The position numbers were made by a program, and so were the translations under genes. This document shows, piece by piece, positions 1 to 18,945 of a stretch of DNA of 64,000 nucleotides. The DNA comes from Promethearchaeota archaeon (GTDB taxonomy: Archaea; Asgardarchaeota; Lokiarchaeia; Sigyniarchaeales; SOKP01), in the NCBI GenBank assembly GCA_016839555.1, contig JAEOUA010000007.1, positions 128,001-192,000 of the forward strand. Reading direction: 5' to 3'. Within the stretch, counting starts at the first letter, position 1. Every line of letters starts with the position of its first letter. Under the pieces are notes generated by a model. That model was not told where the DNA came from. It worked only from the letters and a program-made list of their open reading frames with translations, and searched no databases.

Positions 1-1182
1 TTCAGAGATGATAAAATCGTCTCTATTAATTGATTTTCCTTTAAGTAATGGTAAGAGGCTTTTACCTTGAAAAAATTTGGGAATTTCTAAATCAAAATAA
101 TCTAATATCGTGGGAGCAATATCAATTAATTGTACTTGTTCCTCAACATATTTCACATTCTCTTTTTTACCCAACTCAATGATGATAAGAGGAATCTTTA
201 GAATTTCATCGAAAATATTTCCAGTATGATGTAATAATTCATGCTCATAAAATGCTTCTCCATGATCTGAGGTAATTATAATCAAGCAGTTTTTTTTAAA
301 AAGAGAATAAATTGTTTTAAAAATTTTTAATAAATATTTATCTACAAAATTTATTTCTCCATCATATAAATCAATCAAATTATTCAGGATTTCTTTATTT
401 ATATGATATCTCCTAAAATTCATAAGAAATTTAGTATTTAATAACTCTTTTTCTCTTAAATTAATATTTTCTCTTCTAAATCTTAATAGGTTTCTTTTTG
501 GTGGATTATAAGGATTATGTACATCCATGAAATGAGCACATAAAAACATATTTTTATTATATTTTTTTAAAAAATTAATAACTTTTCTTGAAATCAAAGG
601 TGCATTATATTCAAGTGTTATGTATGGAATTAATATTTCAATTAATTTGTACATTCTAAATACTATCCAATTTCTTATTGTATCAAAACCTATTAAACAT
701 TTTTTAATTTTTTCTAAAATTTTTTGATAATTTATAATTTTTTTTATATTTGAAAAAGCTGATATTTTAAGAGATTCATTTTTATTGAGTTTTTTTCGAG
801 TTTGTGAAAATTTACTTAATTGTCCTTCAAAAAAAATATCAAAACCCCGATCATAATTGTAATGCTTTCCTAAAAAGGGGTTATCATGTATGAAATAAGT
901 TAAAATATTATTTTTCTTTAAAATTTCTTGAAATGTCTTTTTTTGAGTAGGTAAAGGGGCATAACCTCCCCTTAAAAAAGGGAATATTGAAGAAAAAATG
1001 GCTGAAAATGAAGATGGTGAATCTATTCCGTTTGTATATGCATTTAAAAAAATTGTACCTTGGTTGATAAAAGATTCTAAATTTGGAGCCGTATTTCTAT
1101 AATATCCATAGCATTTTAAGCTGTCTCTTCTTAAAGCATCAATTGTAATAAGAATTACTCTTTTATTTGTTAATTTATTCAT
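1..1182 (-). CDS. Sulfatase-like hydrolase/transferase (alkaline phosphatase superfamily), runs off the window edge
   Basis: Not in ORF track. Manual translation from ATG at 1182 gives MNKLTNKRVILITIDALRRDSLKCYGYYRNTAPNLE...NAYTNGIDSPSSFSAIFSS...YDRGFD...HSMDVHNPY...IIITSDHGEAFYEH. The ITIDALR and TSDHGE metal-binding motifs are typical of sulfatase-like proteins. Confidence 0.85.
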   Translation of the reverse strand, partial: MNKLTNKRVILITIDALRRDSLKCYGYYRNTAPNLESFINQGTIFLNAYTNGIDSPSSFSAIFSSIFPFLRGGYAPLPTQKKTFQEILKKNNILTYFIHDNPFLGKHYNYDRGFDIFFEGQLSKFSQTRKKLNKNESLKISAFSNIKKIINYQKILEKIKKCLIGFDTIRNWIVFRMYKLIEILIPYITLEYNAPLISRKVINFLKKYNKNMFLCAHFMDVHNPYNPPKRNLLRFRRENINLREKELLNTKFLMNFRRYHINKEILNNLIDLYDGEINFVDKYLLKIFKTIYSLFKKNCLIIITSDHGEAFYEHELLHHTGNIFDEILKIPLIIIELGKKENVKYVEEQVQLIDIAPTILDYFDLEIPKFFQGKSLLPLLKGKSINRDDFIISE

Positions 1183-1402: not shown

Positions 1403-2536
1403 ATGGAATATAAGAATGAAAAACCCGCTATACTAATGCTAAAAGATGGCCGATATTTTAAGGGTATCGGGTTCGGTGCAACTAAAATTGTTACAGGAGA
1501 ATTAGTATTTACAACAATAACTGGCGCAGGATATAATGAAACGCTCACAGATCCCTCCTATCAAGGTCAAATTGTTATTATGACTCATCCTTTAGTGGGA
1601 AACTATGGTGTACCTTCATGGGAGAAAGATGAATATGGGTTAATAAAATATTTTGAATCTGAATCTATTAAAGTAAGTGGATTTGTTGTAAATGAATGTT
1701 GTAAGCATCCCCATCATTATAAAAGCGTAAAAAATTTGGATCAATTTCTCACAGAAGAAGATATTCCAGGAATTGAATGGATGGATACGCGTGCTATCAC
1801 GAAAATCTTACGAGAAGAAGGAGTGCAAGTCGGATTATTAGCTGTTTTTAATCCTGGAAAAAAACCTAATATTGAAGAATTAAGAGAAATGGTAAAAGAG
1901 GCAGAAGATCCAAATCTAAGAAAATTAGCTGGTGAAGTCTCTGTTAAAAAAATTAAAAAATATTCACCAGTCAACCCTCGAGGAAGAGTGGTAATTTTAG
2001 ATTTAGGTGTGAAATATAGTATTATACGAAATTTATTAAAAAGAAATATAGAAGTAATTCTCGTACCATATGACTATACTTATGAGCAAATAATGAAATA
2101 TAGTCCTAATGGAGTAATTATATCAAATGGTCCGGGAGATCCCAAATTATATTATAATGCCATAGAAGTAAGTACAAGGTTGATGGAGGATGATATACCA
2201 ACCTTCGGAATATGTTTAGGAAACCAAATAATAGGCTTAGCTGCGGGGGGAACTTCCTATAAATTAAAATACGGGCATCGGGGCGGGAACAAAACCGTTA
2301 TAAATCCAGAAACAAGACGTTGCTATATTACCTCTCAAAATCATGGATATTGCGTAAAAGATTTTGAAGCAGGGGGTTTTATAGAATTTTTAAAAAACAT
2401 AGATGATGACTCAAATGAGGGAATTATTCATGAACGAAAACCAATTTTTGCGGTTCAATTTCATCCTGAAGCCTCGCCAGGTCCTCTAGATTCTATATAT
2501 TTATTTGATAAATTTATTGAATTGATGGAGATCTGA
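1403..2536 (+). CDS. carA: Carbamoyl-phosphate synthase small (glutaminase) subunit, catalytically intact
   Basis: SNGPGDP, GICLGNQ (catalytic Cys), YGHRGGN, SQNHG and QFHPEASPGP (His-Glu) motifs. Confidence 0.97.
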   Translation: MEYKNEKPAILMLKDGRYFKGIGFGATKIVTGELVFTTITGAGYNETLTDPSYQGQIVIMTHPLVGNYGVPSWEKDEYGLIKYFESESIKVSGFVVNECCKHPHHYKSVKNLDQFLTEEDIPGIEWMDTRAITKILREEGVQVGLLAVFNPGKKPNIEELREMVKEAEDPNLRKLAGEVSVKKIKKYSPVNPRGRVVILDLGVKYSIIRNLLKRNIEVILVPYDYTYEQIMKYSPNGVIISNGPGDPKLYYNAIEVSTRLMEDDIPTFGICLGNQIIGLAAGGTSYKLKYGHRGGNKTVINPETRRCYITSQNHGYCVKDFEAGGFIEFLKNIDDDSNEGIIHERKPIFAVQFHPEASPGPLDSIYLFDKFIELMEI

Positions 2537-2540
2537 TATC

Positions 2541-5500
2541 ATGCCTTTTGATAAATCCATTAAAAAAGCCTTAGTTTTAGGGAGTGGAGGTATTCGAATT
2601 GGCCAAGCAGGTGAATTTGACTACTCGGGTTCCCAAGTTTTAAAAGCCTTAAAAGAAGAGGGAATAGAAACTATCCTTATTAACCCAAATATTGCAACAA
2701 TTCAAACAGATCCTCAATTATCTGATAGAGTATATTTATTACCTATTAATGTTAAATATGTAGAAAAAGTTATCAAAAAGGAACGTCCTGACGGAATTCT
2801 TCTCTCATTTGGAGGACAAACAGCTCTTAATGTTGGAGTAGAACTCCAAGAATTAGGAATATTGGAAAAATATAATGTCCGTGTTTTAGGAACTCCTATT
2901 GAGGCAATCGAGGCGACAGAAGATAGGGATTTATTTGTAAAAGCAATGAATAAATCTAATGCCCCCGTGTGTAAAAGTAAGGCCGTCAATTCATATAATG
3001 AAGCAATTAAAACAGTGGAGGAATTTGGTTTTCCTTTAATGATAAGGGTAGCCTATACTTTAGGAGGAAGAGGTTCTGGTATTGTTTCTGATATCAAAGA
3101 ATTTGAAAAAATGGCAAGAAGAGGATTGGCACAATCCAGAATAAATCAAATACTTATTGAGGAGAGTGTATGGGGCTGGAAAGAAATTGAATATGAAGTT
3201 GTCCGTGATGCAGCAGATAATTGTTTTATAAATTGCAATATGGAGAATTTTGATCCTGTAGGTGTGCACACCGGGGAATCAATTGTCGTAGCCCCTTCTC
3301 AGACTCTTACTAATGAAGAATATCAAATGCTCCGTTCCGCGTCAATACGAATTATTAGAAATTTAGGGATTATTGGAGAATGTAATATTCAATATGCCCT
3401 TCATCCAAAAAGTAATGAATTTAGAGTAATTGAAGTAAATGCCCGTCTTTCAAGATCTTCCGCTTTAGCTTCAAAAGCGACGGGATATCCTTTAGCTTAT
3501 ATAGCTGCGAAATTAGCAATTGGATATCAACTTCCGGAATTGAAAAATAAAATTACAGGTAAAACGACCGCGTGTTTTGAACCCGCGTTAGATTATCTTG
3601 TCTTGAAAATTCCGCGCTGGGATATGACCAAATTTCAAAGAGTTGACCGTCATATCGGCAGTCAAATGAAGTCAGTCGGCGAAGTGATGGCTATTGGACG
3701 CACCTTCGAGGAAGTATTACAGAAGGCTGTCCGAATGCTCGATATTGGTATGAAAGGAATGGTTTCGAATGATTTAGAGCCAATTGAAGACCTTAATGAA
3801 TTAAAATATAACCTAAGAAATCCCACCGATTTACGAGTTTTTCGCTTGATTGAGGCTATTAAGAGAGGATTAGATCTCGATGAGATTTATAACCTTTCAA
3901 GAGTCGATAAATGGTTCCTCTATAAATTGCAAAATATTATTAATATTGAACGCCAGATTGAATCTTTAGATCTTTTAAAGTCTTCTGACTCTCAAAAAAA
4001 ATATATACTTAAAAGAGCAAAACGTTTTGGCTTTTCGGATGGACAAATCGCTAAAATTATGGGAATAGATACCATTCAAATACGTAATTTGCGCAGACGC
4101 TTCAACATTACTCCTTGCGTAAAACGAATTGATACCTTGGCAGCGGAATGGCCTGCTATCACTAATTATTTGTATCTTACTTATGCAGGTTTGGAGCATG
4201 ATATTGACTATGAACAAGAGGCTAGAAAGAATTTGCAAAAAATCATCGTGCTTGGAAGTGGTACATATCGAATTGGGGCGAGTGTTGAATTTGATTGGGG
4301 TTCTGTAAATTGCCTATGGGGTTTAAAAAAGCAAGATGTTGATCAAGCTATTATTATTAATTATAACCCAGAGACGGTTAGTACCGATTATGATATCAGC
4401 GATAAACTTTATTTCGAAGAGCTTTCGGGTGAGAGGGTATTAGATATATGTGAGTTAGAAAATCCCTATGGTATTATTGTTTCAGTAGGAGGGCAAATCG
4501 CAAATAACCTTGCCGCCAAATTCTCTAAGTATAGTGAGTTTTTTAGGAAAGTTGGTATTAATATCTTAGGGACTCACGGCTCTCGTATTGATATGGCGGA
4601 AGATCGTAGTAAATTTAGTAATTTGTTAGACCAATTGAATATCGGACAACCCCAATGGAAAACTTTGACCAATAAAGCGGAAGCGATAGATTTTTCTAAA
4701 GATGTGGGTTATCCCGTTCTCGTGCGCCCTTCCTATGTATTGAGCGGAGCTGCTATGAGAGTCTGTTATGATCAAAAGACATTGCAAGACACTTTAGATC
4801 TCGCCGCTTCCGTATCGAGTGAGTATCCCGTGGTAATTACCAAATTCTTTACTGATGCCCGTGAAGTAGAATGCGATGGAGTGTGCGATGGAGAAGAGGT
4901 GCTTATTGGAGCAATTGTGGAGCATATAGAAAATGCTGGAATTCATTCTGGAGATGCTACAATGGCAATCCCTCCTCAAACCATCTCAAATGAGGTGATT
5001 GAGATAATCAAAAAATACACAAAACAGATCGCTTTAGCACTTAAAATAAAAGGTCCTTTCAATGTTCAATATTTAGTAAAGAATGGGGGCGTCTATGTTA
5101 TCGAATGTAATCTCCGTTCAAGCCGCAGCATGCCTTATGTATCTAAAACCCGCGGCATTAACTTAATGCGAATCGCGGCAGAAATCTTCATGGGAAAGAA
5201 AATCCCCAAGCGATTATTAGATTTATCCTATGGGGATTATATCTCAGTAAAAGCTCCCATGTTTTCCTTCATGCGATTAGATAAAGCCGACCCAATTCTT
5301 GGCGTCGAGATGAATTCAACGGGGGAATGTGCGAGTTTTGGCGATACTTTTCCGGAAGCATTAGTAAAAGCAATTGAATCAACTGGTAGAAATATTCCGA
5401 TTTACGGGGGGAACGTCCTAATTTCAGTAGGCGGAGAGGAATTAAAGAAAAAAATTATCCCCTTAGCACAGAAATTAAGAAATATGGGCTTTACCATTTT

Positions 5501-5852
5501 TGCTACGGAGGATACTGCGTTAGCAATGAAAAAAAACGGGATATTCGCCGTCAAGCTGTATAAAATCTATGAATACGGAAAGGAGCCGAACATTGTGAGT
5601 TGCCTAGAAAATGCTGCTATAGACCTCGTTATAAATATCCCACTTCCAACAACCGTGGAAGAAAAATTCAGGCAAATTATGGAGGATGAGTATGTAATCA
5701 GGCGGAAGGCAGTTGATTTTAATATTCCTGTGATTACGAACTTTGAGTTGGGAGCCGCACTAGTAGACGCTATAGAAGAATTGCGCCATAAAGAAATCTC
5801 TATTAAATCTTTAAATGAATACCATAAAACCCTAAAAGAAGTTTATTGGTAG
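2541..5852 (+). CDS. carB: Carbamoyl-phosphate synthase large subunit, copy 1
   Basis: GSGGIRIGQAGEFDYSG, EVNARLSRSSALASKATGYP, two ATP-grasp halves and a C-terminal MGS-like domain. Confidence 0.97.
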   Translation: MPFDKSIKKALVLGSGGIRIGQAGEFDYSGSQVLKALKEEGIETILINPNIATIQTDPQLSDRVYLLPINVKYVEKVIKKERPDGILLSFGGQTALNVGVELQELGILEKYNVRVLGTPIEAIEATEDRDLFVKAMNKSNAPVCKSKAVNSYNEAIKTVEEFGFPLMIRVAYTLGGRGSGIVSDIKEFEKMARRGLAQSRINQILIEESVWGWKEIEYEVVRDAADNCFINCNMENFDPVGVHTGESIVVAPSQTLTNEEYQMLRSASIRIIRNLGIIGECNIQYALHPKSNEFRVIEVNARLSRSSALASKATGYPLAYIAAKLAIGYQLPELKNKITGKTTACFEPALDYLVLKIPRWDMTKFQRVDRHIGSQMKSVGEVMAIGRTFEEVLQKAVRMLDIGMKGMVSNDLEPIEDLNELKYNLRNPTDLRVFRLIEAIKRGLDLDEIYNLSRVDKWFLYKLQNIINIERQIESLDLLKSSDSQKKYILKRAKRFGFSDGQIAKIMGIDTIQIRNLRRRFNITPCVKRIDTLAAEWPAITNYLYLTYAGLEHDIDYEQEARKNLQKIIVLGSGTYRIGASVEFDWGSVNCLWGLKKQDVDQAIIINYNPETVSTDYDISDKLYFEELSGERVLDICELENPYGIIVSVGGQIANNLAAKFSKYSEFFRKVGINILGTHGSRIDMAEDRSKFSNLLDQLNIGQPQWKTLTNKAEAIDFSKDVGYPVLVRPSYVLSGAAMRVCYDQKTLQDTLDLAASVSSEYPVVITKFFTDAREVECDGVCDGEEVLIGAIVEHIENAGIHSGDATMAIPPQTISNEVIEIIKKYTKQIALALKIKGPFNVQYLVKNGGVYVIECNLRSSRSMPYVSKTRGINLMRIAAEIFMGKKIPKRLLDLSYGDYISVKAPMFSFMRLDKADPILGVEMNSTGECASFGDTFPEALVKAIESTGRNIPIYGGNVLISVGGEELKKKIIPLAQKLRNMGFTIFATEDTALAMKKNGIFAVKLYKIYEYGKEPNIVSCLENAAIDLVINIPLPTTVEEKFRQIMEDEYVIRRKAVDFNIPVITNFELGAALVDAIEELRHKEISIKSLNEYHKTLKEVYW

Positions 5853-5928
5853 ATCTAATTTATACTCAAATTATTAGAAAATTTTGGACCACTATTCTTT
5901 TAAATATTTGTATTTAGTTTTTTAATAT

Positions 5929-6087
5929 ATGGCAATATCAACTAATAATAGGTATAGAAGTTGCGTTGACTGCGACCATTATAATGAGGAGAGGCAATAT
6001 TGTGAATACTTTAAGAGAAAGCTCTCTCCACACTGTTATTGTTTAGTAGACGGAAATATGGTTTATTTCCTTAAAAACAATAACTAA
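5929..6087 (+). CDS. Small Cys-rich protein (52 aa), putative metal-binding
   Basis: Below the ORF-track cutoff. MAISTNNRYRSCVDCDHYNEERQYCEYFKRKLSPHCYCLVDGNMVYFLKNNN has CxxC...C...CxC. It is locally more GC-rich than its flanks and is followed by a T-tract. Confidence 0.55.
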   Translation: MAISTNNRYRSCVDCDHYNEERQYCEYFKRKLSPHCYCLVDGNMVYFLKNNN

Positions 6088-6252
6088 TCGTTTTTTTTCT
6101 CTCTTATTCTCGATCTTTTTATTCTATTTAATTAAAACATTTTTTATTTTACTGATATTATTTTTGAGAAGATAATTATATTAATTAAATTAGTAAAATT
6201 AGATATACAAAATATATTAAATAGTAAACAAAGCCGTATAAATGTAAATACA

Positions 6253-7392
6253 ATGATTTATAAAACTGAAAAACCAGCTATTTTGATGTTAGATAGTGGG
6301 CTATATTTTAAGGGAATTGGTTTTGGCGCCGTTAAAAAAGTATCTGGTGAAATCATATTTAATACAATACCAGGTTCGGGTTATGTTGAATTATTAACTA
6401 ATCCCACAAATAAAGGAAAAATTATAGTATGTACATACCCCTCCATCGGTAACTACGGGGTTCCCGCAAAATTGAGAGATGAATATGGGATATTAAAACA
6501 GTTTGAATCAGACTCAATTCATATAAATGGACTCGTAATCAGCGAATATTGTGATACACCGAGTCATTATGAAAGTATCAAAACCTTAGAGGAATGGCTT
6601 ATAGAGGAGGATATTCCTGCTATACAATGGGTAGATACGAGAAGGTTAACCCAATATCTCGTTCAAAATAAAACCTCTATGGGGATTTTACAAGTTTTTG
6701 ATCAAAATAGCAAACCAAATATTCAAGCTTTACGAGAAGAAGCAAAAAAATTAAAGAATTTAAATAAAAGAAATTTAGTAGAAGTGGTTTCCACCAAAAA
6801 AGTGAAAACTTATTCTTGTGAAAATAGTAAGGCAACAGTTCTCATTATTGATTTAGGAGTGAAAAACGGTATTTTAAGGGTTCTTCTCAAAAAAAAGATG
6901 GATATCGTTATAGTTCCCCATAATTTTTACTATAATAATATAATGGAGTTAAGGCCTGATGGAATTTTGATTTCAAATGGACCAGGGAATCCGAAAATAT
7001 ATTCTGAAATCGTGAACTTAATCGAAAAACTTCTAAATACAGAAACTCCAATGATGGGAATAGGATTGGGTCATATTTTAATTGGATTAGCGGCAGGTGC
7101 AGAAGTCTATAAGATGAAAGCCCCTCATAGAGGGGGAAGAACAACTGTGAAAAACTCAACAAATCAATGTTATATAACTTACCAAAATCATGGCTATTGT
7201 TTAAAAAGTTTAAAAGAAAATGGTTTTTCAGAATACTTTCATGATAAGGATGATGGATCGAATGAAGGGCTGATTCATAAAAATAAATCAATTTTTTCAG
7301 TTTTATTTAATCCAGAAGGATCCCCTGGGCCATTAGATGTGAGGGATATCATATTTGATAAATTTATAGAATCAATCAAGGTGAAGAAATAA
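6253..7392 (+). CDS. carA: Carbamoyl-phosphate synthase small subunit paralog lacking glutaminase catalytic residues
   Basis: Full-length paralog of 1403..2536, but GIGLGHI replaces GICLGNQ and LFNPEG replaces QFHPEA. Confidence 0.93.
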   Translation: MIYKTEKPAILMLDSGLYFKGIGFGAVKKVSGEIIFNTIPGSGYVELLTNPTNKGKIIVCTYPSIGNYGVPAKLRDEYGILKQFESDSIHINGLVISEYCDTPSHYESIKTLEEWLIEEDIPAIQWVDTRRLTQYLVQNKTSMGILQVFDQNSKPNIQALREEAKKLKNLNKRNLVEVVSTKKVKTYSCENSKATVLIIDLGVKNGILRVLLKKKMDIVIVPHNFYYNNIMELRPDGILISNGPGNPKIYSEIVNLIEKLLNTETPMMGIGLGHILIGLAAGAEVYKMKAPHRGGRTTVKNSTNQCYITYQNHGYCLKSLKENGFSEYFHDKDDGSNEGLIHKNKSIFSVLFNPEGSPGPLDVRDIIFDKFIESIKVKK

Positions 7393-10300
7393 TGCCCTTG
7401 GATAAATCAATCAAGAAAGTTCTCGTTTTAGGCTCTGGGGCAGTCAGAATCGGACAAGCAGGAGAATTTGACTATTCTGGTTCTCAAGTACTTAAAGCAT
7501 TAAATGAGGAGGGTATTGAAACAATTCTCGTGAATCCTAATATTGCCACAATCCAAACAGATCCTCAAATGTCTGATAAAGTTTACTTGGTTCCAATAAA
7601 TGTTAAATATGTTGAGGAAATTATTGAAAAAGAACGACCGGATGGAATCTGTCTTTCTTTTGGTGGGCAAACAGGATTAAATGTGGGAGTAGAATTAAAA
7701 GAAGCGGGAATTTTAGATAAATATAATGTGAGAGTTTTTGGAACACCAATTAAAGCTATTGAAGCTACTGAAGATCGTGATTTATTTGTAAAAGCGATGA
7801 ATGAAGCTAATTGCCCCGTATGTAAAAGCAAAGCGGTAACAAGTTATAAGGAGGCAAAACAAGTAGTTGAAAAATTTGGATTTCCTCTTATGCTGAGAGT
7901 GGCTTATGTTCTTGGAGGGAGAGGCTCTGGAATAATCCACAATATGAAGGAATTTGAACGAAAAGCAAAAGTTGGCTTGGCTCAATCAAGAATTAATCAA
8001 ATTTTAATTGAGGAATCAGTATGGGGCTGGAAAGAAATAGAATTTGAAATTCTTAGGGATGCGGATGATAATTGCTTTATTAATTGCTCTATGGAAAACG
8101 TTGATCCCTGTGGAATTCACACTGGAGATTCAATTGTAGTCGCTCCCGCTCAAACTCTAACTGATGAAGAATTACAAATGCTTCGTTCAGCATCAATTAG
8201 AGCTACTAAAGCTGTCGGAGTCTGTGGAGAGTGTAATATTCAATGGGCTTTAGATCCTTTCTCTAAAAAATATAGAGCAATTGAGATAAATGCAAGATTA
8301 TCTCGATCTTCCGCATTAGCTTCTAAAGCCACTGGCTATCCATTAGCGTATATTGCTGCGAAAATTGCAGTGGGATATACTTTACCAGAGCTTATAAATC
8401 AAATAACCTTAAAAACCACCGCAAATTTTGAACCCGCCACAGATTATATGGTCTTAAAGTATCCTCGATGGGATTTAACAAAATTTGAAAAGGTTGATAG
8501 ACATATTGGTCCTCAAATGAAAGGCGTAGGGGAATGTATGAGTATTGGAAGGTGCTTTGAAGAGGTATGTCAGAAAGCATTACGCATGTTAGATATTAAT
8601 CTGAAAGGATTTGTTGCAAATGATCTTGAACCGATTGAAGATATAAATGAATTGAAATATGAATTAAGAAATCCCACAGATTTAAGATTCTTAAGAATTA
8701 GTGAAGCAATAAAACGAGGGATTTCTATTGAAGAAATTTATGAACGGTCCAGAATTGATAAATGGTTTCTTCATAAATTAGAAAATATCATTAAAATTGA
8801 GAAGGAATTAGAAAACCTAGACTTTTTACAATCTTCTGATGAAGATAAAGAATATTTATTAACAAGGGCAAAAAGATTTGGTTTTTCTGATGGACAAATT
8901 GGTAAAATCATGGGATTGACTACTCCCGTAATACGAAGATTGCGAAAACGATTAAGAATTGTTCCCTATGTAAAACAAATTGATACATTGGCAGGTCAAA
9001 TTGAACCTGAACGTCATTATTTATACCTTACTTATTGGGGGGATAAACATGATATTGATTTTGAGAAAGAAGAGCAAGAAAATCAAAAAAAAGTGATTGT
9101 CTTAGGTTCAGGAACGTATCGAATAGGCTCCTCTGTTGAATTTGATTGGGGTTGTGTTAATTGTTTGTGGGGTTTACAAGAGCTTGGTGTTGATAAAGCG
9201 ATAATTATTAATTATAATCCTGAGACGGTAAGTACAGATTATGATATTTCTGATCGTCTTTATTTTGAGGAACTTTCAGGGGAACGGGTGCTAGATATCT
9301 GCGAATTAGAAAAACCATATGGAATTGTGCTAAACGCAGGGGGTCAAATCGCCCAAAATCTTGCCGCAAAGTTTGCAAAATATTCAGAGTTTTATCGAAA
9401 AACCAATATAAGGATATTGGGAACGCATGGCTCTCGTATCGATATGGCAGAGGATCGCGTGAAATTCAGTGCCCTCCTTGATGATCTACATATTAATCAA
9501 CCCGAATGGGCAATGCTTACCACTACAGAGGAAGCTATTGAGTTTGCCGAAAAAGTAGGATATCCAGTATTAGTGAGACCTTCTTATGTATTAAGTGGTG
9601 CTGCAATGCGAGTATCTTATGATAAAAAAACCTTAAAAGATACACTTGACTTAGCTGCGGCAGTATCTCGAGAATATCCAGTAATTATAACAAAATTTTT
9701 TACAGATTCAAGAGAGGTGGAATGCGACGGGATTTGCGATGGGGAGAATGTATTGATTGGAGCTATAGTGGAGCACATTGAAAATGCCGGTGTTCATTCT
9801 GGGGACGCCACCATGACAATCCCTCCACAGACTATTTCTAAAAAAATAATAAAACAAATAGAAGAATATACACGAGAAATTGCTTTAGCTTTGAAAATAT
9901 TAGGGCCATTTAATATTCAATATTTAGTAAAGGATGGGGAAGTTTCTGTGATTGAATGTAATTTAAGATCCAGCCGTAGCATGCCGTATGTATCTAAAAC
10001 ACGCGGAATAAATTTAATGAAATTAGCAGCAGAAGTTATAATGGGAAATAAAATACCAAAAAAATTAATAGACCTTCCCTATGGTAATTTTGTGGGAGTA
10101 AAAGCTCCCATGTTTTCATTTATGCGATTGGATAATGCAGATCCCATTTTAGGAGTGGAGATGAACTCTACTGGTGAAGTGGGGGTACTCGGAGATGATT
10201 TCGCAGATGCTTTAATGAAGGCACTTGAAGCTGCCGAAAATAATATACCTATTAAAAATGGAAATGTATTAATTTCAGTGGGAGGAGAGGAGCTTAAGAA

Positions 10301-10703
10301 GAAAATAATCCCTTTAGCAAAAAAATTGAAAAATATGGGATTTACGATCTTTGCGACGGAGGATACTGCTCTGGCTCTTAAAAAGAATGGAATTGATACT
10401 GTAAGATTATATAAAGTACATGAAGTTGGAAAAGAGCCAAATATTATGAAATGTTTACGAAAAGGAGAAATAGATTTAGTAATTAACATCCCCTTACCAA
10501 CGACGGTCAAAGAGAAATTTAGGCAAATAATGGAGGATGAATATAAAATTAGACGCCATGCGGTCGATTTTAATATTCCTGTTATCATTAATTTACAACT
10601 TGCCAAATCATTAATTAACGCCATTGAAAAAATGCGTCAAAAACAATTCTCAATTAAGGCTTTAAATGATTACCATAAATCATTAGAAGAAGTGTATTGG
10701 TAA
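7392..10703 (+). CDS. carB: Carbamoyl-phosphate synthase large subunit, copy 2
   Basis: Same length (1103 aa) and motifs as copy 1. Its start overlaps the carA2 stop (TAATG). Confidence 0.97.
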   Translation: MPLDKSIKKVLVLGSGAVRIGQAGEFDYSGSQVLKALNEEGIETILVNPNIATIQTDPQMSDKVYLVPINVKYVEEIIEKERPDGICLSFGGQTGLNVGVELKEAGILDKYNVRVFGTPIKAIEATEDRDLFVKAMNEANCPVCKSKAVTSYKEAKQVVEKFGFPLMLRVAYVLGGRGSGIIHNMKEFERKAKVGLAQSRINQILIEESVWGWKEIEFEILRDADDNCFINCSMENVDPCGIHTGDSIVVAPAQTLTDEELQMLRSASIRATKAVGVCGECNIQWALDPFSKKYRAIEINARLSRSSALASKATGYPLAYIAAKIAVGYTLPELINQITLKTTANFEPATDYMVLKYPRWDLTKFEKVDRHIGPQMKGVGECMSIGRCFEEVCQKALRMLDINLKGFVANDLEPIEDINELKYELRNPTDLRFLRISEAIKRGISIEEIYERSRIDKWFLHKLENIIKIEKELENLDFLQSSDEDKEYLLTRAKRFGFSDGQIGKIMGLTTPVIRRLRKRLRIVPYVKQIDTLAGQIEPERHYLYLTYWGDKHDIDFEKEEQENQKKVIVLGSGTYRIGSSVEFDWGCVNCLWGLQELGVDKAIIINYNPETVSTDYDISDRLYFEELSGERVLDICELEKPYGIVLNAGGQIAQNLAAKFAKYSEFYRKTNIRILGTHGSRIDMAEDRVKFSALLDDLHINQPEWAMLTTTEEAIEFAEKVGYPVLVRPSYVLSGAAMRVSYDKKTLKDTLDLAAAVSREYPVIITKFFTDSREVECDGICDGENVLIGAIVEHIENAGVHSGDATMTIPPQTISKKIIKQIEEYTREIALALKILGPFNIQYLVKDGEVSVIECNLRSSRSMPYVSKTRGINLMKLAAEVIMGNKIPKKLIDLPYGNFVGVKAPMFSFMRLDNADPILGVEMNSTGEVGVLGDDFADALMKALEAAENNIPIKNGNVLISVGGEELKKKIIPLAKKLKNMGFTIFATEDTALALKKNGIDTVRLYKVHEVGKEPNIMKCLRKGEIDLVINIPLPTTVKEKFRQIMEDEYKIRRHAVDFNIPVIINLQLAKSLINAIEKMRQKQFSIKALNDYHKSLEEVYW

Positions 10704-10843: not shown

Positions 10844-11611
10844 TTAAAAAAGAAATATTTTAATCATTAGAAACAAACTCAAACAAATAATAAAGATACC
10901 AGCTAATGTTTTCATGGATTTTTCTTTTTTAATTTTTTTGGTAGCTAATGCTCCTATGAAAGATGCTGGAACAGCTCCAATTATTAAAAGTAGAGGTAAT
11001 AGGGGATCAAAAAATCCATGAAACAAGATATAGAAAATTAAACTCGTAATACAGATAGGTGCTTCACAAGCTAAAGCCGTTGCTATTGAACTCTTTGTAT
11101 CTCTGCCAGAAACTACTTGTCCTGCCGTCACAAGTGGACCAAACCCACCACCCGAAATTGCTTTATTAAAAGAACTTATTAATCCTATTGCTACTATTTT
11201 ATTCCAAGAAAAACTATATTCCTTTTTTCTAAGCATTAAAGCACCAATAAATAGAACAAGAAATGCAATATAAATTTCAATAATTAGTTTGTTCAGACTA
11301 AATGCTAAAATGACCGAAATAAAAGCTGCAAAGGATCCTAAAATTGAAATAAGTCCACACACTTTCCAATTCATCTCACTATTTTTAGTAAAACTAGTAT
11401 TTTCAAATAGATGATGCGCAAAAGCTCCAGAAAGACCGGTAAAGATCTCTGATAAAAGTATTGAAGGCACAATGTAAAATAGATCTAGACCCAAAATTAA
11501 AAAAAGTGGAGTTAAAATTGTTCCATACCCTCCTCCCAGCGAAGTATCAATAAATTCTAAACCAAAAGCTAAAATTATTATTAGTATTCCTAAAATTATA
11601 TTTATCTCCAT
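10844..11611 (-). CDS. TauE/SafE (TSUP) family anion/sulfite exporter
   Basis: Hydrophobic multi-TM protein with two repeats of the glycine motif (LGGGYG, ISGGGFGP). Confidence 0.85.
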   Translation of the reverse strand: MEINIILGILIIILAFGLEFIDTSLGGGYGTILTPLFLILGLDLFYIVPSILLSEIFTGLSGAFAHHLFENTSFTKNSEMNWKVCGLISILGSFAAFISVILAFSLNKLIIEIYIAFLVLFIGALMLRKKEYSFSWNKIVAIGLISSFNKAISGGGFGPLVTAGQVVSGRDTKSSIATALACEAPICITSLIFYILFHGFFDPLLPLLLIIGAVPASFIGALATKKIKKEKSMKTLAGIFIICLSLFLMIKIFLF

Positions 11612-11962
11612 TTTTCTCAGATGATTTTTTAAGTTTTATTTTATAGTAATTAAGTATCATTAAATCTAATTAAATATAACTATGCTACATTAATATTAAA
11701 AGTTTTCTTTAAATTGAATTCTGATAAAATTTTTTTTATTAATCAATTTTCCATATTGAATTCCTATAGAACAATCAAAAGCTTATTTTTCCCTCTCATT
11801 TATATAATAGATAATTTAATCATATGTTGATTGAAATTAACAACGTATTTTTTAAAATAACATCATTGAGAAGAAATAATTCACTGGATATTTAATATGG
11901 TAAAATATTAATGAAATATGCAAATATAAAATTTTTAAAAATAACTTGTAAAATTAATTAAG

Positions 11963-12763
11963 TTAATAAATGATATTGATAAGACTAAAAATCGAGAGAG
12001 TAATAGCATAGAGCGGGATTATTACTCTCCAAATTTTGTTAGGTATAACTCTTACTAGATATGGAGAGATTAACGCTCCAAAAAATGCTCCCGTAAAGAT
12101 CGAAGGAAGAAGGATAAGATCTATTGTTACACCAGACCAACTTATCAAGAAAAAACTGAATACGCCCATTATAGAAACAAGTCCTTCAGCAAAAGCCACA
12201 ATTGCTCTGGCACTTTTTTCATAAACCCCTGAAAAGATTTGTCCTAGGGTTATAATAGGACCATAACCCCCTCCACTTATTCCCTTATTAAAACCAGCAA
12301 TAGCAGAAAATAATAATAAAAGTCTTGGTTTAACTTTGGATTCTGACTCATTCCTATTCTCATATCCATTTTTTAACCTAACTATTCCTACTCCTCCCAT
12401 AATAAGTACAAGAACCGAAACATAAATCTCAATAATCAATTCTGGAAATTTAATCGCAAAATATGCAATTATAATAGAAATAATAATAGCTATACATCCT
12501 ATTAAAGCAAATAAAAATGCGTATTTAGTTGCATCACTAAAGGGTTTAAATGTAAAATTAATATTTTCAAATTCATGGTCAAAATAAGCAGTTATTAAAC
12601 CAGTTATTGTTTGAGAAATAAGTAATGAAGGAACTATTTGTAGTGAATTGTAACCAAATAAAAACAGTAATGGAGCTAATCCTGTTCCAAAACCCATCCC
12701 AGTTGCTGAGTCCATAGCCGCAAGAAAAAAGGAAATCAAAATTACAATAATAATTAAATCCAT
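11963..12763 (-). CDS. TauE/SafE (TSUP) family exporter, second paralog
   Basis: TGMGFG and ISGGGYGP motifs; multi-TM. Confidence 0.85.
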   Translation of the reverse strand: MDLIIIVILISFFLAAMDSATGMGFGTGLAPLLFLFGYNSLQIVPSLLISQTITGLITAYFDHEFENINFTFKPFSDATKYAFLFALIGCIAIIISIIIAYFAIKFPELIIEIYVSVLVLIMGGVGIVRLKNGYENRNESESKVKPRLLLLFSAIAGFNKGISGGGYGPIITLGQIFSGVYEKSARAIVAFAEGLVSIMGVFSFFLISWSGVTIDLILLPSIFTGAFFGALISPYLVRVIPNKIWRVIIPLYAITLSIFSLINIIY

Positions 12764-13125: not shown

Positions 13126-14781
13126 TTATTGTTTAAAATTTATTTTCTTTAAGACGGGATATCTTCTTCCGATTCCGAATGCACTAGAACTTACTTTAAT
13201 CGATTGAACTAATTGTCTTCTCTTAAATTCCGCTTTTAAATAAAGATTTTCTACTTTGTCAATTGTTTCAGAACTAATTCCATATTTTTTAAGTTCTGTA
13301 AAATTGGTCCCAATTCCATAATTTATTATATTCTGAAGAATTTTGTCTAAAATAGAATAAGGTGGTAAAGAATCGCTGTCTTTTTGATTTTCTCTCAGCT
13401 CTGCTGTTGGGGCTCTTGTTATAATTCCATTCGGTATTATTTCTTCATTTCGATTAATCCATTCACATATATCATATATTTGCACTTTTAAAAGATCTCC
13501 TGGAATATTTTTTCCTCCACATGTATCGCCATATAATGTACAATATCCAACAGCTATTTCTGACTTATTTCCAGTAGAAACCAGGAGCCAATTATATTTA
13601 TTTGAATAATACATCAATATATTAGCTCGGATTCTTGCCTGCAAATTCTCATCAGCAATATCAAATGAGATTTCTCCTAGCTTATTTTTAAGTGAATCTT
13701 CAAAACTATTGAAAACTTCATCAATAGGATGGATGATATATCGAGATCCAATATTCTCACATAATTTACGTGCTAGATCTATACTTTCTTGAGAAGTATA
13801 TCTTGTTGGCATCATGATATTGGTAACCTTATCTGGTCCAAGTGCTTTAGCACAAACATAAGATGTAAACGCGGAGTCAATACCACCGCTCAAACCTAAA
13901 ACAACTCCATCGAATATATTAATTTTATGAAAATAATCGTATAAATTAAGTGAAAGTGCTTCTATTACCTCTTCTCTCCAATCTTTAGATTTTTCTATCT
14001 CTTTAATATGCTCTTTTTTATCAATATGGAGAGTAATAGATGGAAAATCCTCTTCAAATGCTTTAGCTTTGTAAAAAAGTTGACCAAATTGATTAATAAT
14101 AAAACTTTGTCCGTCATAGACAATCTCATCTAATCCCCCAACCATATTGACATATATTATTGGAATTTGGAATCTTTTTGCTTTCTCGCAAATTATTTTT
14201 TTTCTTATCTCAAATTTATCAATATGATAAGGAGATGCATTGATAACTATTAATAATTCTGCCCCATTTTGAACCAAATTATCCGCAACTTTAATATCAT
14301 AATGTTCATCCCATATATCTTCGCAAATCAAGATTCCAACTTGGACACCTTTAATCTCAATCGGTTTAAATTGTTCATCAAAAGAGAAATATCTGCGTTC
14401 ATCAAATACATCGTAATTAGGTAATAATCGCTTATTTTCAATATATTTGATTTTTTTATTTTCAATTACAAGAGCAGAATTGTAGAATCTCTGAATTTTT
14501 TCCTTTAATTCTTCAGGTTCAGTAAATGTGCCGAGAATTATTGTAGATTCTGTATCTAATTCTGTAATCTCATCAATATATTCCTTATTCTTTTCGCAAA
14601 TCATAGGGTCAAGGATATGATCCATTAATGGATAACCCACTAGAGACATCTCAGGAAATATTATCATATCAGCTTTTTTGTTGGATTTAATGATCTGAAC
14701 AATTTTTTCTGCATTGTATTTTATATCTCCTACAATTGGATTAATCTGTCCGATTAAAACCGTTAATTGTCTGTTTTCCAT
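13126..14781 (-). CDS. nadE: Glutamine-dependent NAD+ synthetase
   Basis: N-terminal nitrilase-type domain (FPEM, NKRLLPNYDVFDERRYF, ICEDIW) plus synthetase domain (GLSGGIDS, ENLQARIR, GNKSE, PTAEL). Confidence 0.95.
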   Translation of the reverse strand: MENRQLTVLIGQINPIVGDIKYNAEKIVQIIKSNKKADMIIFPEMSLVGYPLMDHILDPMICEKNKEYIDEITELDTESTIILGTFTEPEELKEKIQRFYNSALVIENKKIKYIENKRLLPNYDVFDERRYFSFDEQFKPIEIKGVQVGILICEDIWDEHYDIKVADNLVQNGAELLIVINASPYHIDKFEIRKKIICEKAKRFQIPIIYVNMVGGLDEIVYDGQSFIINQFGQLFYKAKAFEEDFPSITLHIDKKEHIKEIEKSKDWREEVIEALSLNLYDYFHKINIFDGVVLGLSGGIDSAFTSYVCAKALGPDKVTNIMMPTRYTSQESIDLARKLCENIGSRYIIHPIDEVFNSFEDSLKNKLGEISFDIADENLQARIRANILMYYSNKYNWLLVSTGNKSEIAVGYCTLYGDTCGGKNIPGDLLKVQIYDICEWINRNEEIIPNGIITRAPTAELRENQKDSDSLPPYSILDKILQNIINYGIGTNFTELKKYGISSETIDKVENLYLKAEFKRRQLVQSIKVSSSAFGIGRRYPVLKKINFKQ

Positions 14782-15040: not shown

Positions 15041-16276
15041 ATGGCTGAAGCTGATATTGCTTTTGTTTTGATATGCACTGGTTTGGTCTTTATAATGACA
15101 CCTGGATTAGCCTTCTTTTATGGCGGATTATTAAGGAAAAAAAATATTATTAATATGATGGCAATGTGCTTTGTTTCCATTGCGATCGTTTCTATCTTAT
15201 GGTTTTTCTTAGGTTATAGTTTAGCATTTGGTCCTGATATTGGAGGTTTTATTGGCGGATTCGATTATATAGGATTAATCGGAGTAGATTTTCAATCGGA
15301 ATTCGATTTTTCATTAATATTAGGAGATATCTACAGATATTTCTTTCTTGCTCCAACAATTCCTGACATGTTATTTATGGTATTTCAGTTAATGTTTGCT
15401 ATTATTACTGTTGCAATAATTGCAAGTCCATTTTCAGAAAGAGTAAACTTTGGTGCTTTTTGCATTTTTATCTCTATTTGGTTAATCATCGTGTATTCTC
15501 CAATTGCTCACTGGGTGTGGGGAGAAGGAGGATGGTTAAATGTTATGGGCGCACTTGATTTTGCTGGAGGTACAGTTGTTCACATAAATGTGGGATTTGC
15601 CGCATTAGCAGTAGCAATGGTAATAGGACCACGTGCAGGATATCAAAAAGAATCACATGGACCATCCAATATACCTTATGTATTATTAGGAATGGGATTA
15701 TTATGGATCGGGTGGTTTGGTTTCAACGGAGGTAGTGCTTTAGCTGCAAATGGTGATGCTGTTTTAGCAGTATTTAACACGCATATCGCTGCAAGTTCTG
15801 GGGGCATAATTTGGATGTTGATTGAATATTCAAGAACAAAAAAATTCAGTACTTTGGGTCTCGCTTCAGGAGTGCTTGCGGGCTTAGTTGCCATAACACC
15901 AGCAGCTGGATTTGTACAACCATGGGCGGCACTTCTTATAGGAACTATTTCAGGAGTATTTTGCTTTTTCGCACTTTCCCTACGTTCACGCTCGAAAATT
16001 GATGAATCATTAGATGCTATCTCTATTCATGGAACAGGAGGTATCTGGGGTGCAATTGCTACAGGAATATTCGCAAGTATAGGTTCATCTGGATTACTTT
16101 TAGGAAATTTAGTACAATTCTTTATCCAAATACTCGGTGTTGTAGTAACCATAGGATTTTCATTTGGTATAACTTATGCTTTAGCATGGGTTCTTAATAA
16201 AACAATTGGATTTAGAGTACCTATTGAATTGGAATATGTAGGTCTTGATATGTCGCAGCATGGAGAAATAGCATGA
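15041..16276 (+). CDS. amtB: Ammonium transporter
   Basis: MTPGLAFFYGG, DFAGGTVVH, WFGFNGGS and second His in ISIHG. Confidence 0.97.
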   Translation: MAEADIAFVLICTGLVFIMTPGLAFFYGGLLRKKNIINMMAMCFVSIAIVSILWFFLGYSLAFGPDIGGFIGGFDYIGLIGVDFQSEFDFSLILGDIYRYFFLAPTIPDMLFMVFQLMFAIITVAIIASPFSERVNFGAFCIFISIWLIIVYSPIAHWVWGEGGWLNVMGALDFAGGTVVHINVGFAALAVAMVIGPRAGYQKESHGPSNIPYVLLGMGLLWIGWFGFNGGSALAANGDAVLAVFNTHIAASSGGIIWMLIEYSRTKKFSTLGLASGVLAGLVAITPAAGFVQPWAALLIGTISGVFCFFALSLRSRSKIDESLDAISIHGTGGIWGAIATGIFASIGSSGLLLGNLVQFFIQILGVVVTIGFSFGITYALAWVLNKTIGFRVPIELEYVGLDMSQHGEIA

Positions 16277-16281
16277 GGTGA

Positions 16282-16629
16282 ATGAGAATGAAAAAAATTG
16301 AATGTTTTATTAGGGCAGAAAAGCTTGAAATAGTGAAAAAAGCTTTATTCGAGAAAGGAATAAAAGGTATGAGTATTTATGAAGTACGTGGTCATGGTCA
16401 TCAAAGAGGCATGTTGTTAACAGGAAGAGCAGGACAATATTGTGTTGAATGGATCGGAAAACTAAAAATGGAAATTGCTATTAGTGATAAAGTGAATCTT
16501 GATGAAATTATTGATGTTATCATTGAAAATGCTAGAACGGGCAATCCAGGCGATGGAAAAATTTTCATTATTCCTATAGAAGATGCAATCAGAATTAGAA
16601 CCAACCAAAGAGGAGAAGAAATACTTTAA
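16282..16629 (+). CDS. glnK: P-II nitrogen regulatory protein
   Basis: T-loop GHGHQRG...QY, B-loop RTGNPGDGKIFI and C-loop IRIRT; directly downstream of amtB. Confidence 0.95.
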   Translation: MRMKKIECFIRAEKLEIVKKALFEKGIKGMSIYEVRGHGHQRGMLLTGRAGQYCVEWIGKLKMEIAISDKVNLDEIIDVIIENARTGNPGDGKIFIIPIEDAIRIRTNQRGEEIL

Positions 16630-17157: not shown

Positions 17158-18945
17158 ATGAATATCTTTGCAATGTTTTCTTTAAGTGGTGCTATAATTA
17201 CATTTACTCTAGGTCTTTTTATTTATGCTAAAGACTCGAATAAATTATTGAATAGAATTTTTATGTTATTTTGCATTAGTGTTTCTATTCTTAGTTTTTC
17301 TGAATTTGGAATGAGACAAGCTGAAAGTTATGACACCGCAAAGTTTTGGTTTGTCCTAACTGGAATATTCCCTTTATGTGCGTTTTTATTTTTCTATTTT
17401 ACATTGATCTTCTATAAAAAGGATATTTTCAAAAATAAAAAATGGCTTTTTCCAATACTTCTCCCTCTTACTTCAATCATAATTTTTCTAAATTTTACTA
17501 TAACTATTTTTTATAGTAATCCCATAAAAACAAATTGGGGATTTGATTATTCTTTCACTCAAGATGTATTTTTATTTTATCTAACTATTTTAGACTTCTC
17601 TTTCTCAATTGGGCTAATAATTTTTTCAATACTTCTCTATGTCAAGATTTATATCAGTTCAGACGATAAAATAAAGAAAAATCAAGCAAAATTGATATCA
17701 TTTGGGGTAACTATAGCCATTTTAACATTTATTATAATTAGGTTAATAATTCCTATAATAATTCAAACAGATAATATTCCAGATTTGACAATGATGAGTT
17801 TTATTTTTACTTGTATACTTATAAGATATGCAATGTGGAGATATGAATTATTTTCTTTAGACTTAACAACTGCCTCTGAAAGAATTTTTTCTACCATTTC
17901 AGACTGCTTAATTTTAACCAATTCTCAAACCATAATTTTATCGGTCAATCAAGAAGTATTAAAATTACTTGATTATAGAGAAGATGAGATAAAGCAAAGA
18001 CCATTAGCTATTTTACTAGCTTCAGAGCGAGACCAGAAATTATATCAATACCAATACCAGTTGCTCACTGACAAGGAAAATGGAGGGTTCTTAACCGACA
18101 TCGAAGTGGATTTTAAAACTAAAACCAATAATAAAATTAAAGTATCTTTAACCGCCTCTAAAATAATTAATAAAAAAGGAGATTTGCGAGGAATAATACA
18201 TATCGGGAGGAATATTACAAAAACGAGAAAGATACAACAACAACTTGACGAAGCCATTCAAAAATCTCAGTTTAAAACGAAATTTATGGCATCAATGTCC
18301 CACGAGTTAAGAACTCCTTTAAATGCCATTATAGGGTTTGTCGATCTTCTCCTGGAGGATTATTGTGGATCTTTAAATAAATGCCAAAACGACTTTCTTT
18401 CCGATGTCAAACTATCTTCGAAAGATTTACTGGAATTAATCAACAGCCTTCTTGATCTTTCTAAAATCGAAGCGGGTGAATTAGAACTCGAAATTCATAG
18501 CATTAACATAGAAACATTACTGAATCATATTGAAACCATTCTCAAACCATTATGCAGAAAAAAAAACTTAAAATTTAACATTGAGAACTTAACTACTTCA
18601 GAATTCATTAATGCTGATTTAGTGCGGTTAAAGGAAATCTTGTTCAATTTATTAAATAACGCATTAAAATTTACTCAAAAAGGAAGTGTGACCTTGCGAA
18701 TTAAAGAATTATCCAAATGGTTTGAATTTAATGTGATCGATACAGGTATTGGTATTGATGAGAGCGAATATGGTAATATATTTGAAGAATTCAAGAAAAT
18801 CAACAATCCAGAAATTCGAGATTCGCAAGGCATGGGTTTAGGATTAGCCATAACGCAACATTTGGTTAGACTTCACGGAGGGCAAATTTCCTTTTTCAGC
18901 GAAGTTGGAAAGGGGAGCACTTTTGTTTTCACAATACCTAAATAA
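17158..18945 (+). CDS. Membrane sensor histidine kinase (N-terminal multi-TM, PAS, HisKA, HATPase)
   Basis: MSHELRTPLN H-box, NLLNNALKF N-box, DTGIG and GMGLGL G-boxes; about 7 N-terminal hydrophobic segments. Confidence 0.93.
   Translation: MNIFAMFSLSGAIITFTLGLFIYAKDSNKLLNRIFMLFCISVSILSFSEFGMRQAESYDTAKFWFVLTGIFPLCAFLFFYFTLIFYKKDIFKNKKWLFPILLPLTSIIIFLNFTITIFYSNPIKTNWGFDYSFTQDVFLFYLTILDFSFSIGLIIFSILLYVKIYISSDDKIKKNQAKLISFGVTIAILTFIIIRLIIPIIIQTDNIPDLTMMSFIFTCILIRYAMWRYELFSLDLTTASERIFSTISDCLILTNSQTIILSVNQEVLKLLDYREDEIKQRPLAILLASERDQKLYQYQYQLLTDKENGGFLTDIEVDFKTKTNNKIKVSLTASKIINKKGDLRGIIHIGRNITKTRKIQQQLDEAIQKSQFKTKFMASMSHELRTPLNAIIGFVDLLLEDYCGSLNKCQNDFLSDVKLSSKDLLELINSLLDLSKIEAGELELEIHSINIETLLNHIETILKPLCRKKNLKFNIENLTTSEFINADLVRLKEILFNLLNNALKFTQKGSVTLRIKELSKWFEFNVIDTGIGIDESEYGNIFEEFKKINNPEIRDSQGMGLGLAITQHLVRLHGGQISFFSEVGKGSTFVFTIPK

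Follow-up and report, generated by a model that had tools for sequence, protein, structure and literature searches.

What becomes of a carbamoyl-phosphate synthetase (CPS) whose small subunit can no longer hydrolyse glutamine, and why should such a subunit be kept? The question is raised by a 64,000-nucleotide stretch of DNA (the window; positions 128,001 to 192,000 of contig JAEOUA010000007.1) from a Promethearchaeota archaeon, in which two carAB operons lie in tandem and the second encodes a full-length CarA with a dead glutaminase site. It is argued here, from comparisons of sequences and predicted structures, that carA2-carB2 encodes a second, heteromeric, ammonia-dependent CPS in which CarA2 would be a structural pseudo-glutaminase. 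This reading is given a probability of about 0.7. The features at issue, all on the plus strand, are the following.

1403-2536, plus strand: carA1, canonical glutaminase small subunit of 377 amino acids, with Cys271, Gln275, His354 and Glu356 intact
2213-2215, plus strand: TGT, codon of Cys271 in carA1
2462-2464, plus strand: CAT, codon of His354 in carA1
2541-5852, plus strand: carB1, large synthetase subunit of 1103 amino acids, partner of carA1
5853-6252, plus strand: spacer between the operons, 400 bp, AT-rich
6253-7392, plus strand: carA2, full-length small subunit of 379 amino acids, with a dead glutaminase site
7063-7065, plus strand: GGA, codon of Gly271 in carA2, at the site of the catalytic Cys (E. 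coli Cys269)
7309-7311, plus strand: AAT, codon of Asn353 in carA2, at the site of the triad His (E. coli His353)
7392-10703, plus strand: carB2, large subunit of 1103 amino acids, whose start overlaps the carA2 stop

The operons carA1B1 (1403-5852) and carA2B2 (6253-10703) are colinear. A preliminary description of the locus had called them a tandem duplication, and the open reading frames (ORFs) and coordinates it gave are correct. CarA1 and CarA2 are 51% identical, CarB1 and CarB2 76%. Both CarAs match the families PF00988 and PF00117 (E values of 5.6e-35 and 7.8e-35, respectively, for CarA2). CarA2 belongs to the CarA small-subunit family TIGR01368 (353 bits, cut-off 307), and CarB2 to the CarB large-subunit family TIGR01369 (1416 bits). 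The carA2 stop and the carB2 start overlap in the sequence TAATG at 7390-7394, an arrangement indicating that the synthesis of the two proteins is coupled.

The motifs of the glutaminase site read GIGLGHI and FNPE in CarA2, GICLGNQ and FHPE in CarA1. When aligned to E. coli CarA, the changed sites of CarA2 correspond to Cys269, Gln273 and His353, Gln273 being replaced by Ile. Cys-269 and His-353 are essential for glutamine hydrolysis in E. coli CPS (PMC6245113), and CarA2 lacks the complete Cys-His-Glu triad by which glutamine-hydrolysing CPSs (EC 6.3.5.5) are recognised. The loss of the three residues in CarA2, and their retention in CarA1, had been described before and are confirmed. A sequencing error had been deemed unlikely. 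Positions 7063-7065 are covered without differences by contigs of two other studies (marsh metagenomes X3 and X4), which carry the same Gly codon. Positions 7309-7311 are covered by X5, another sample from the study that yielded the genome. This coverage by separately assembled contigs excludes a sequencing error.

The preliminary description had looked to Asgard orthologs for a conserved loss of Cys and His, and this is what they display. Among the best 120 protein clusters, defined at 90% identity, found by searching with CarA2, 105 carry Gly and Asn at both sites; the third triad site is Glu in 91 of them and Asp in 14. The other 15 clusters are canonical (16 rows, when the CarA1 of the window is counted). 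By their sources, the clusters are proteins of metagenome-assembled genomes (MAGs) labelled Promethearchaeota, Lokiarchaeota, Hermodarchaeota or Hodarchaeota, annotated as 'glutamine-hydrolyzing'. A pattern scan of one genome per GTDB species identified 18 Asgard loci with a dead carA, and both replacements are present in 17 of 17 genome loci. A full-length carB follows in every Asgard locus whose contig reaches far enough, and a canonical carA-carB pair is located directly upstream of the dead operon, as in the window, in at least nine. The dead paralog was found in 20 of the 135 species genomes of the GTDB family to which the window belongs (18 full loci, 2 partial). Beyond the family, 151 genomes sampled from the phylum yielded no dead CarA, all matches fetched being canonical. 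The second carA of locus L045 was considered as a pseudogene and rejected, the break being a run of N in the scaffold.

Trees of both subunits, foreseen in the preliminary description, tell how the two operons arose. In the CarA tree, 17 dead sequences form one clade (Shimodaira-Hasegawa-like approximate likelihood ratio test, SH-aLRT, 100), which is nested among the canonical CarAs of the family and is sister to their main clade (SH-aLRT 90). The CarB partners of dead CarAs similarly form one clade (SH-aLRT 100), at a position matching that in the CarA tree. Matching single clades in the two trees imply that the whole operon was duplicated once and then descended vertically; as read from the trees, the duplication is located near the base of the GTDB family, and both copies diverged with the species. 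Dead CarAs have branches about two to three times longer than canonical CarAs, and CarB2 branches are as short as those of CarB1. Gene conversion between carB1 and carB2 of the window was considered and discarded, as the two genes, 71% identical overall, are only 49% identical at third positions, share no identical run longer than 21 nt, and fall in separate CarB clades. Three loci of one genus (L122-L124, genomes G129, G147 and G040) encode canonical CarAs with the motifs GICLGDQ and LQFHPES, which branch outside the duplication; the CPS of this genus may be divergent or replaced. Another genome of the same genus (G167, locus L035) hosts an ordinary canonical copy and a dead copy.

The dead operon is kept by selection. 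Ratios of nonsynonymous to synonymous substitution (dN/dS) were calculated pairwise by the method of Nei and Gojobori (NG86), leaving out the near-identical pair L032/L083 (dS below 0.1). Values are 0.11-0.23 for dead carA (0.12-0.16 where dS is at most 1), 0.04-0.09 for canonical carA, 0.02-0.11 for carB2, within the range of canonical carB, and about 0.04 for carB1, for which a single pair was computable. Relaxed selection on carA2 had been named beforehand as an outcome that would speak against a functional subunit; what was found is purifying selection, weaker than on canonical carA and far from neutral. In nine genomes having both copies, the mean pairwise identity of the N domain is 0.63 in dead and 0.81 in canonical CarA, that of the glutamine amidotransferase (GATase) domain 0.60 and 0.74, respectively. 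Each of the four domains of CarB2 is conserved to the same degree as its CarB1 counterpart. By these measures, dead CarA is relaxed about two to three fold yet clearly maintained, and CarB2 is under full constraint.

The pace of change, two to three times faster in CarA2 than in CarA1 and in both domains, is what a decaying pseudogene might display. However, carA2 is an uninterrupted frame of full length, its dN/dS stays far short of 1, the fold is confidently predicted, 69 columns are invariant across 35 sequences, 105 clusters share both replacements, and independent assemblies share the codon. That carA2 is a pseudogene, or an artefact of sequencing, is hardly credible.

The AlphaFold2 model of CarA2 is confident (predicted local distance difference test, pLDDT, 89.3; predicted template modelling score, pTM, 0.90). 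Superposition on E. coli CarA gives template modelling (TM) scores of 0.89-0.90, so that the predicted fold is intact, and superposition on human CPS1, in its N-terminal section, gives a TM score of 0.88. The best match of CarA2 among the sequences of solved structures is human CPS1 (E 2.5e-73); the match to this protein scores 250 bits, that to E. coli CarA 186 bits.

Residues are hereafter given in E. coli numbering, and counts for the dead family refer to 17 sequences. We take the roles of the checked CarA and CarB residues to be those assigned in the work of Thoden, Holden and Raushel. For the gate, PMC4655335 confirms them. Cys269 is replaced by Gly and His353 by Asn in 17 of 17 members of the dead family. 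Gln273 and Gly313 are variable, Ser47 is changed to Thr or Ala, Ala309 to Phe in 15 of 17, and Pro360, found in 23 of 23 canonical CarAs, is mostly Ala. Lys202, Gly241, Gly243, Gly293, Asn311, His312, Pro358, Gly359 and Asp362 are all invariant; Glu355 is retained in 16 sequences and is Asp in the remaining one.

The synthetase subunit, in turn, is intact. At 39 positions of the ATP sites and tunnels, CarB2 retains either the E. coli residue or the residue it has in common with CarB1, the only exceptions being I18V and a Thr at E. coli position 352. All ATP-site residues checked are retained in both halves, as are the ammonia gate (Cys232, Ala251, Ala314) and the residues of the carbamate tunnel. 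The subunit thus has the two ATP-grasp phosphorylation sites, gate, tunnel and MGS-like allosteric domain of a CarB, and the listed residues are conserved in all sequences (17 of 17). A CPS whose synthetase is intact but whose glutaminase is dead can draw its nitrogen only from free ammonia. We infer that CarB2 would phosphorylate bicarbonate, the product would be attacked by NH3, and the resulting carbamate would be phosphorylated in turn. CarA2 would be maintained in a structural role, paired with the carboxyphosphate and oligomerisation domains, and probably forms part of a route of external ammonia to the conserved gate, a role that would explain the retention of a dead subunit. Phe309 and the loss of Pro360 may, speculatively, remodel the disused tunnel. 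The product of carA1B1 would be an ordinary glutamine-dependent enzyme. That the locus encodes one glutamine-dependent CPS and one ammonia-only CPS with a structural small subunit, as proposed in the preliminary description, is supported, the use of ammonia being deduced from the sequence.

The same residues lend themselves to another explanation, in which CarA2B2 uses some other nitrogen nucleophile or ligand at a remodelled CarA2 pocket, or carries out a partial or reverse reaction. It would fit the conservation of Lys202, Gly241, Gly243, Asn311, His312 and Glu355 in the dead family, the near fixation of Phe at position 309, and the distribution of carbamate kinase, found in about 1 of 15 genomes having both CPSs against 80 of the 135 genomes of the whole family. 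Both ATP sites of CarB2, both tunnels and the gate are however unchanged, as expected for full carbamoyl-phosphate synthesis. There is no new candidate nucleophile among the 13 fixed sites specific to CarA2, and the genome from which the window comes holds the two usual consumers of carbamoyl phosphate, two transcarbamylases. Such a different chemistry is considered unlikely.

Sites that distinguish the paralogs bear on two further explanations. Eighteen CarB columns are fixed differently in CarB2 and CarB1. All fall within E. coli positions 18-552, a stretch that comprises the carboxyphosphate and oligomerisation domains; no fixed difference is present at positions 553-1073, the half of the protein made of the carbamoyl-phosphate and allosteric domains. 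Assuming an even spread of independent sites, the probability that all 18 would miss this half is near 0.5^18 (about 4e-6). The small subunit contacts precisely the carboxyphosphate and oligomerisation domains of CarB (PMC6245113). Thirteen CarA columns are fixed differently between paralogs, six of them in the N domain. Residues of this type are found on both partners, at CarA 115-137 and in the N half and oligomerisation domain of CarB, and their placement fits a mutual adaptation of A2 and B2 where they meet, whether to secure the right partner, to handle ammonia or to do both.

If subunits were swapped, CarB2 could work with CarA1 as a glutamine-dependent enzyme, CarA2 being a regulatory decoy that competes for CarB. 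In favour of swapping, the two operons adjoin in at least nine genomes, and the paralogs still share 65-76% identity in those CarB domains that face the interface. Against it, carA2 is translationally coupled to carB2, paralog-specific residues are fixed on both CarA and CarB, and four genomes, 92-99% complete, lack any CarA1 or CarB1. This arrangement is regarded as quite improbable. Duplicate CPSs under pathway-specific control are well known (PMC6022934), and the duplication might similarly be a matter of regulation only, with arginine- and pyrimidine-specific enzymes as in Bacillus and fungi and the loss of glutaminase as a secondary event. CarB2 and CarB1 are nevertheless identical at the positions aligned with the ornithine and UMP/IMP (uridine and inosine monophosphate) sites of E. 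coli. The confinement of fixed sites to interface-side domains argues against a purely allosteric specialisation (arginine versus pyrimidine), which was rejected, there being no fixed difference in the allosteric domain. Neither operon adjoins arg or pyr genes, and the loss of the triad would be left unexplained. Specialisation of regulation as the whole story is accordingly rated very improbable.

The ammonia-dependent reading has precedents among known CPSs, one being vertebrate CPS I (human CPS1, EC 6.3.4.16; PDB 5DOT, 5DOU and 6UEL), which has, like CarA2, a glutaminase-type domain devoid of nucleophile. In human CPS1, from which the Cys has been lost, external ammonia avoids the old site; its path begins in the N-terminal domain, between Glu82 and His142, and follows the subunit interface to a conserved gate (PMC4655335). 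CarA2 residues E46 and H105 align with Glu82 and His142, and both positions are fixed or almost fixed throughout the dead family. The CPS1 gate, Cys648/Ala667/Ala729, corresponds to E. coli C232/A251/A314 and is conserved also in CarB2. By analogy with CPS1, external ammonia would be the expected substrate of CarA2B2.

The resemblance is not complete. CPS1 has Ser (Ser294) at the Cys site and keeps the His, whereas CarA2 has Gly271 and Asn353. CPS1 is a single fused polypeptide of the animal CPS I/III lineage; CarA2B2 is encoded by two genes and has an independent origin, within one Asgard family. The old tunnel is blocked in CPS1 by a Gln at E. coli position 293, and a block of this type was sought in CarA2 and is not present, as Gly293 is kept in 17 of 17 dead sequences. 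Phe at position 309 is, judging from the alignment, a possible alternative plug. CPS1 needs N-acetylglutamate (PMC4655335), and the residues of the allosteric pocket of CarB2 are the same as in the glutamine-type CarB1. The parallel to CPS I drawn in the preliminary description is one of function only, and does not extend to gene structure, replacing residues, origin or allosteric pocket.

E. coli CarAB (EC 6.3.5.5) has the two-subunit architecture and the fold of CarA2B2, and the wild type is glutamine dependent. The natural changes of CarA2 fall at the same positions as those of laboratory variants of E. coli in which the use of glutamine is abolished. Among the variant structures, the 1A9X chain reads NPE at His353, 1C30 is titled C269S, and 1M6V is titled G359F. 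Variants C269G and H353N, which Rubino in 1986 and Miran in 1991 are said to have studied, reportedly keep the ammonia-dependent reaction. Activity with external ammonia survives in E. coli enzymes whose glutamine tunnel has been blocked or perforated (PMC4655335).

A different comparison is offered by Bacteroides thetaiotaomicron, which has a canonical glutamine-dependent CPS, belonging to a high-affinity ammonium locus, and besides it an orphan CarB2. The latter matters when ammonium is high and has been proposed to depend on ammonium, the proposed benefit being the ATP of glutamine synthesis saved when ammonium is abundant (PMC8121099). The orphan protein has no small subunit, whereas the Asgard CarB2 keeps a dead, translationally coupled CarA2. 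By analogy, the likely benefit of CarA2B2 is a saving of ATP on glutamine synthesis at abundant ammonium. When ammonium is plentiful, carbamoyl phosphate would be made by CarA2B2 without this cost; when it is scarce, it would be made from glutamine by CarA1B1.

Several observations weigh against the use of ammonia by CarA2B2. The E. coli enzyme needs very high, unphysiological concentrations of ammonia (PMC6245113), and no substitution in CarA2B2 can be tied, on present alignments, to a lower Michaelis constant (Km) for it. Lys202, Asn311, His312 and Glu355 are kept in CarA2, and the pocket could still bind something. The 18 sites specific to CarB2 may have to do with the choice of partner and not with ammonia. 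A look for the locus among RNA runs found it in none. Lastly, a dead CarA and its CarB are the sole CPS genes in four genomes, 92-99% complete, of a single genus, and all four carry a carbamate kinase, scoring over the family cut-off, beside a transcarbamylase. Another route to carbamoyl phosphate is hence possible in these organisms; they do not prove that the dead CPS supplies it, which weakens the argument for function that could be built on genomes with no other CPS. In the genome of the window (92% complete), two CarAs only (carA1 and carA2) and two transcarbamylases were found, and no carbamate kinase scored over the family cut-off. Carbamate kinase and dual CPSs are nearly complementary across genera, in the proportions reported above; the pattern is clade-structured and is not an independent correlation.

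Genes for nitrogen metabolism, listed below, are clustered next to the CPS operons.

13126-14781, minus strand: nadE, glutamine-dependent NAD synthase
15041-16276, plus strand: amtB
16282-16629, plus strand: glnK
17158-18945: histidine kinase of the seven-transmembrane (7TM)-PAS type
20852-23574, minus strand: split glutamate synthase genes
23595-24893, minus strand: CCG/4Fe-4S protein gene, next to the glutamate synthase genes
25473-27320: second PAS histidine kinase
33143-34498, minus strand: glnA, the only one found in the genome
34689-35156, plus strand: Lrp/AsnC regulator

The region 13126-35156 adjoining the CPS operons is a nitrogen-assimilation island. The association of nadE, amtB and glnK with the dead operon recurs in the two closest relatives only (L040 and L043), and is absent from the other Asgard loci, several of which have under 10 kb of sequence on one of their sides. 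The closeness of amtB-glnK, pointed out in the preliminary description, is real in the window and conserved in the nearest relatives alone; being so limited, it is not a defining feature of the dead operon.

A sulfatase gene (1-1182, minus strand) lies upstream of the CPS operons, and a sulfatase is found also after the dead operon in locus L036. Two tandem genes of the TauE/SafE sulfite-exporter family (10844-12763, minus strand) lie downstream. The spacer between the operons includes an ORF of 52 codons (5929-6087, plus strand), rich in Cys (CxxC...C...CxC) and followed by a T8 run, which has no homolog in any of the related loci compared.

Is the loss of the triad peculiar to this archaeal family? 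The same pattern search, which demanded FNPE, so that the His state is not independent of it while the loss of Cys is, detected about 58 bacterial loci with Asn at the CarA His site, almost all from Bacillota. Where the carA is full length, in 55 loci, the Cys site is occupied by Gly, Asn, Ala or Ser. Nearly all these carAs are followed by carB (e.g. L048:9956-14276, L092:9989-14235, L062:9971-14240). Triad-less CarAs occur in Cerasibacillus, Pseudogracilibacillus, Virgibacillus, Lactobacillus delbrueckii, L. iners, Oscillospiraceae and Erysipelotrichaceae. In Bacillota the Cys is mostly replaced by Gly, the His by Asn, Tyr, Gln and others. The bacterial proteins are 31-40% identical to CarA2, and resemble the Asgard family in that Ser47, Gln273 and Pro360 are relaxed, and Lys202, Gly241, Glu355, Pro358 and Gly359 kept. 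In contrast, Asn311 and His312, invariant in the dead Asgard family, drift in Bacillota.

The dead CarA is the only CarA in Cerasibacillus terrae, in an Oscillospiraceae MAG and in an Erysipelotrichaceae MAG; L. delbrueckii and L. iners have a canonical CarA besides the dead one. The dead carA of C. terrae is part of a pyrR-pyrB-pyrC-carA-carB-pyrK-pyrD-pyrF-pyrE operon. A second carB of this species (G152:C2:23331-23552; open frame of 1063 amino acids) has no CarA beside it, and may be an orphan large subunit like the B. thetaiotaomicron CarB2. Cys and/or His are missing, with varied replacements, in 31 of the 120 clusters nearest to the C. terrae CarA, and these triad-less neighbours are intermixed with canonical Bacillaceae sequences of similar identity to the query. 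A profile of dead CarAs found about 24 proteins without Cys and/or His among the top 150 representatives at 50% identity, besides two animal CPS I-like and two truncated ones. By these comparisons, loss of the CarA glutaminase looks recurrent in prokaryotes.

No description of a triad-less prokaryotic CarA was found in a search of the literature. According to two reviews, every CPS other than CPS I (PMC4655335), and by extension every bacterial CPSase (PMC6245113), takes its nitrogen from glutamine, and the exclusive use of glutamine in bacteria has been a long-standing hypothesis (PMC8121099). We incline, by a small measure, to the view that triad-less CarAs mark an unrecognised class of prokaryotic two-subunit, ammonia-dependent CPSs, which would have arisen repeatedly, once in this Asgard family and probably several times in Bacillota, often by the same Cys to Gly and His to Asn changes, the dead subunit being wall and entrance of a path for external ammonia. 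The annotation 'glutamine-hydrolyzing' is probably wrong for more than a hundred Asgard clusters and many Bacillota proteins.

A class of this kind, if real, would contradict the textbook view that all CPSs but CPS I use glutamine, and a glutaminase-dead CarA-CarB pair kept by selection would be the natural prokaryotic counterpart of CPS I. In the window, what the genes suggest is an ammonia-type CPS with a vestigial glutaminase, having its glutamine-dependent twin directly beside. This would make a paired system in which the efficiency of ammonia use, the retention of a dead subunit and the entry of ammonia could be compared, and would have a bearing on the nitrogen economy of ammonium-rich, peptide-fermenting sediment archaea.

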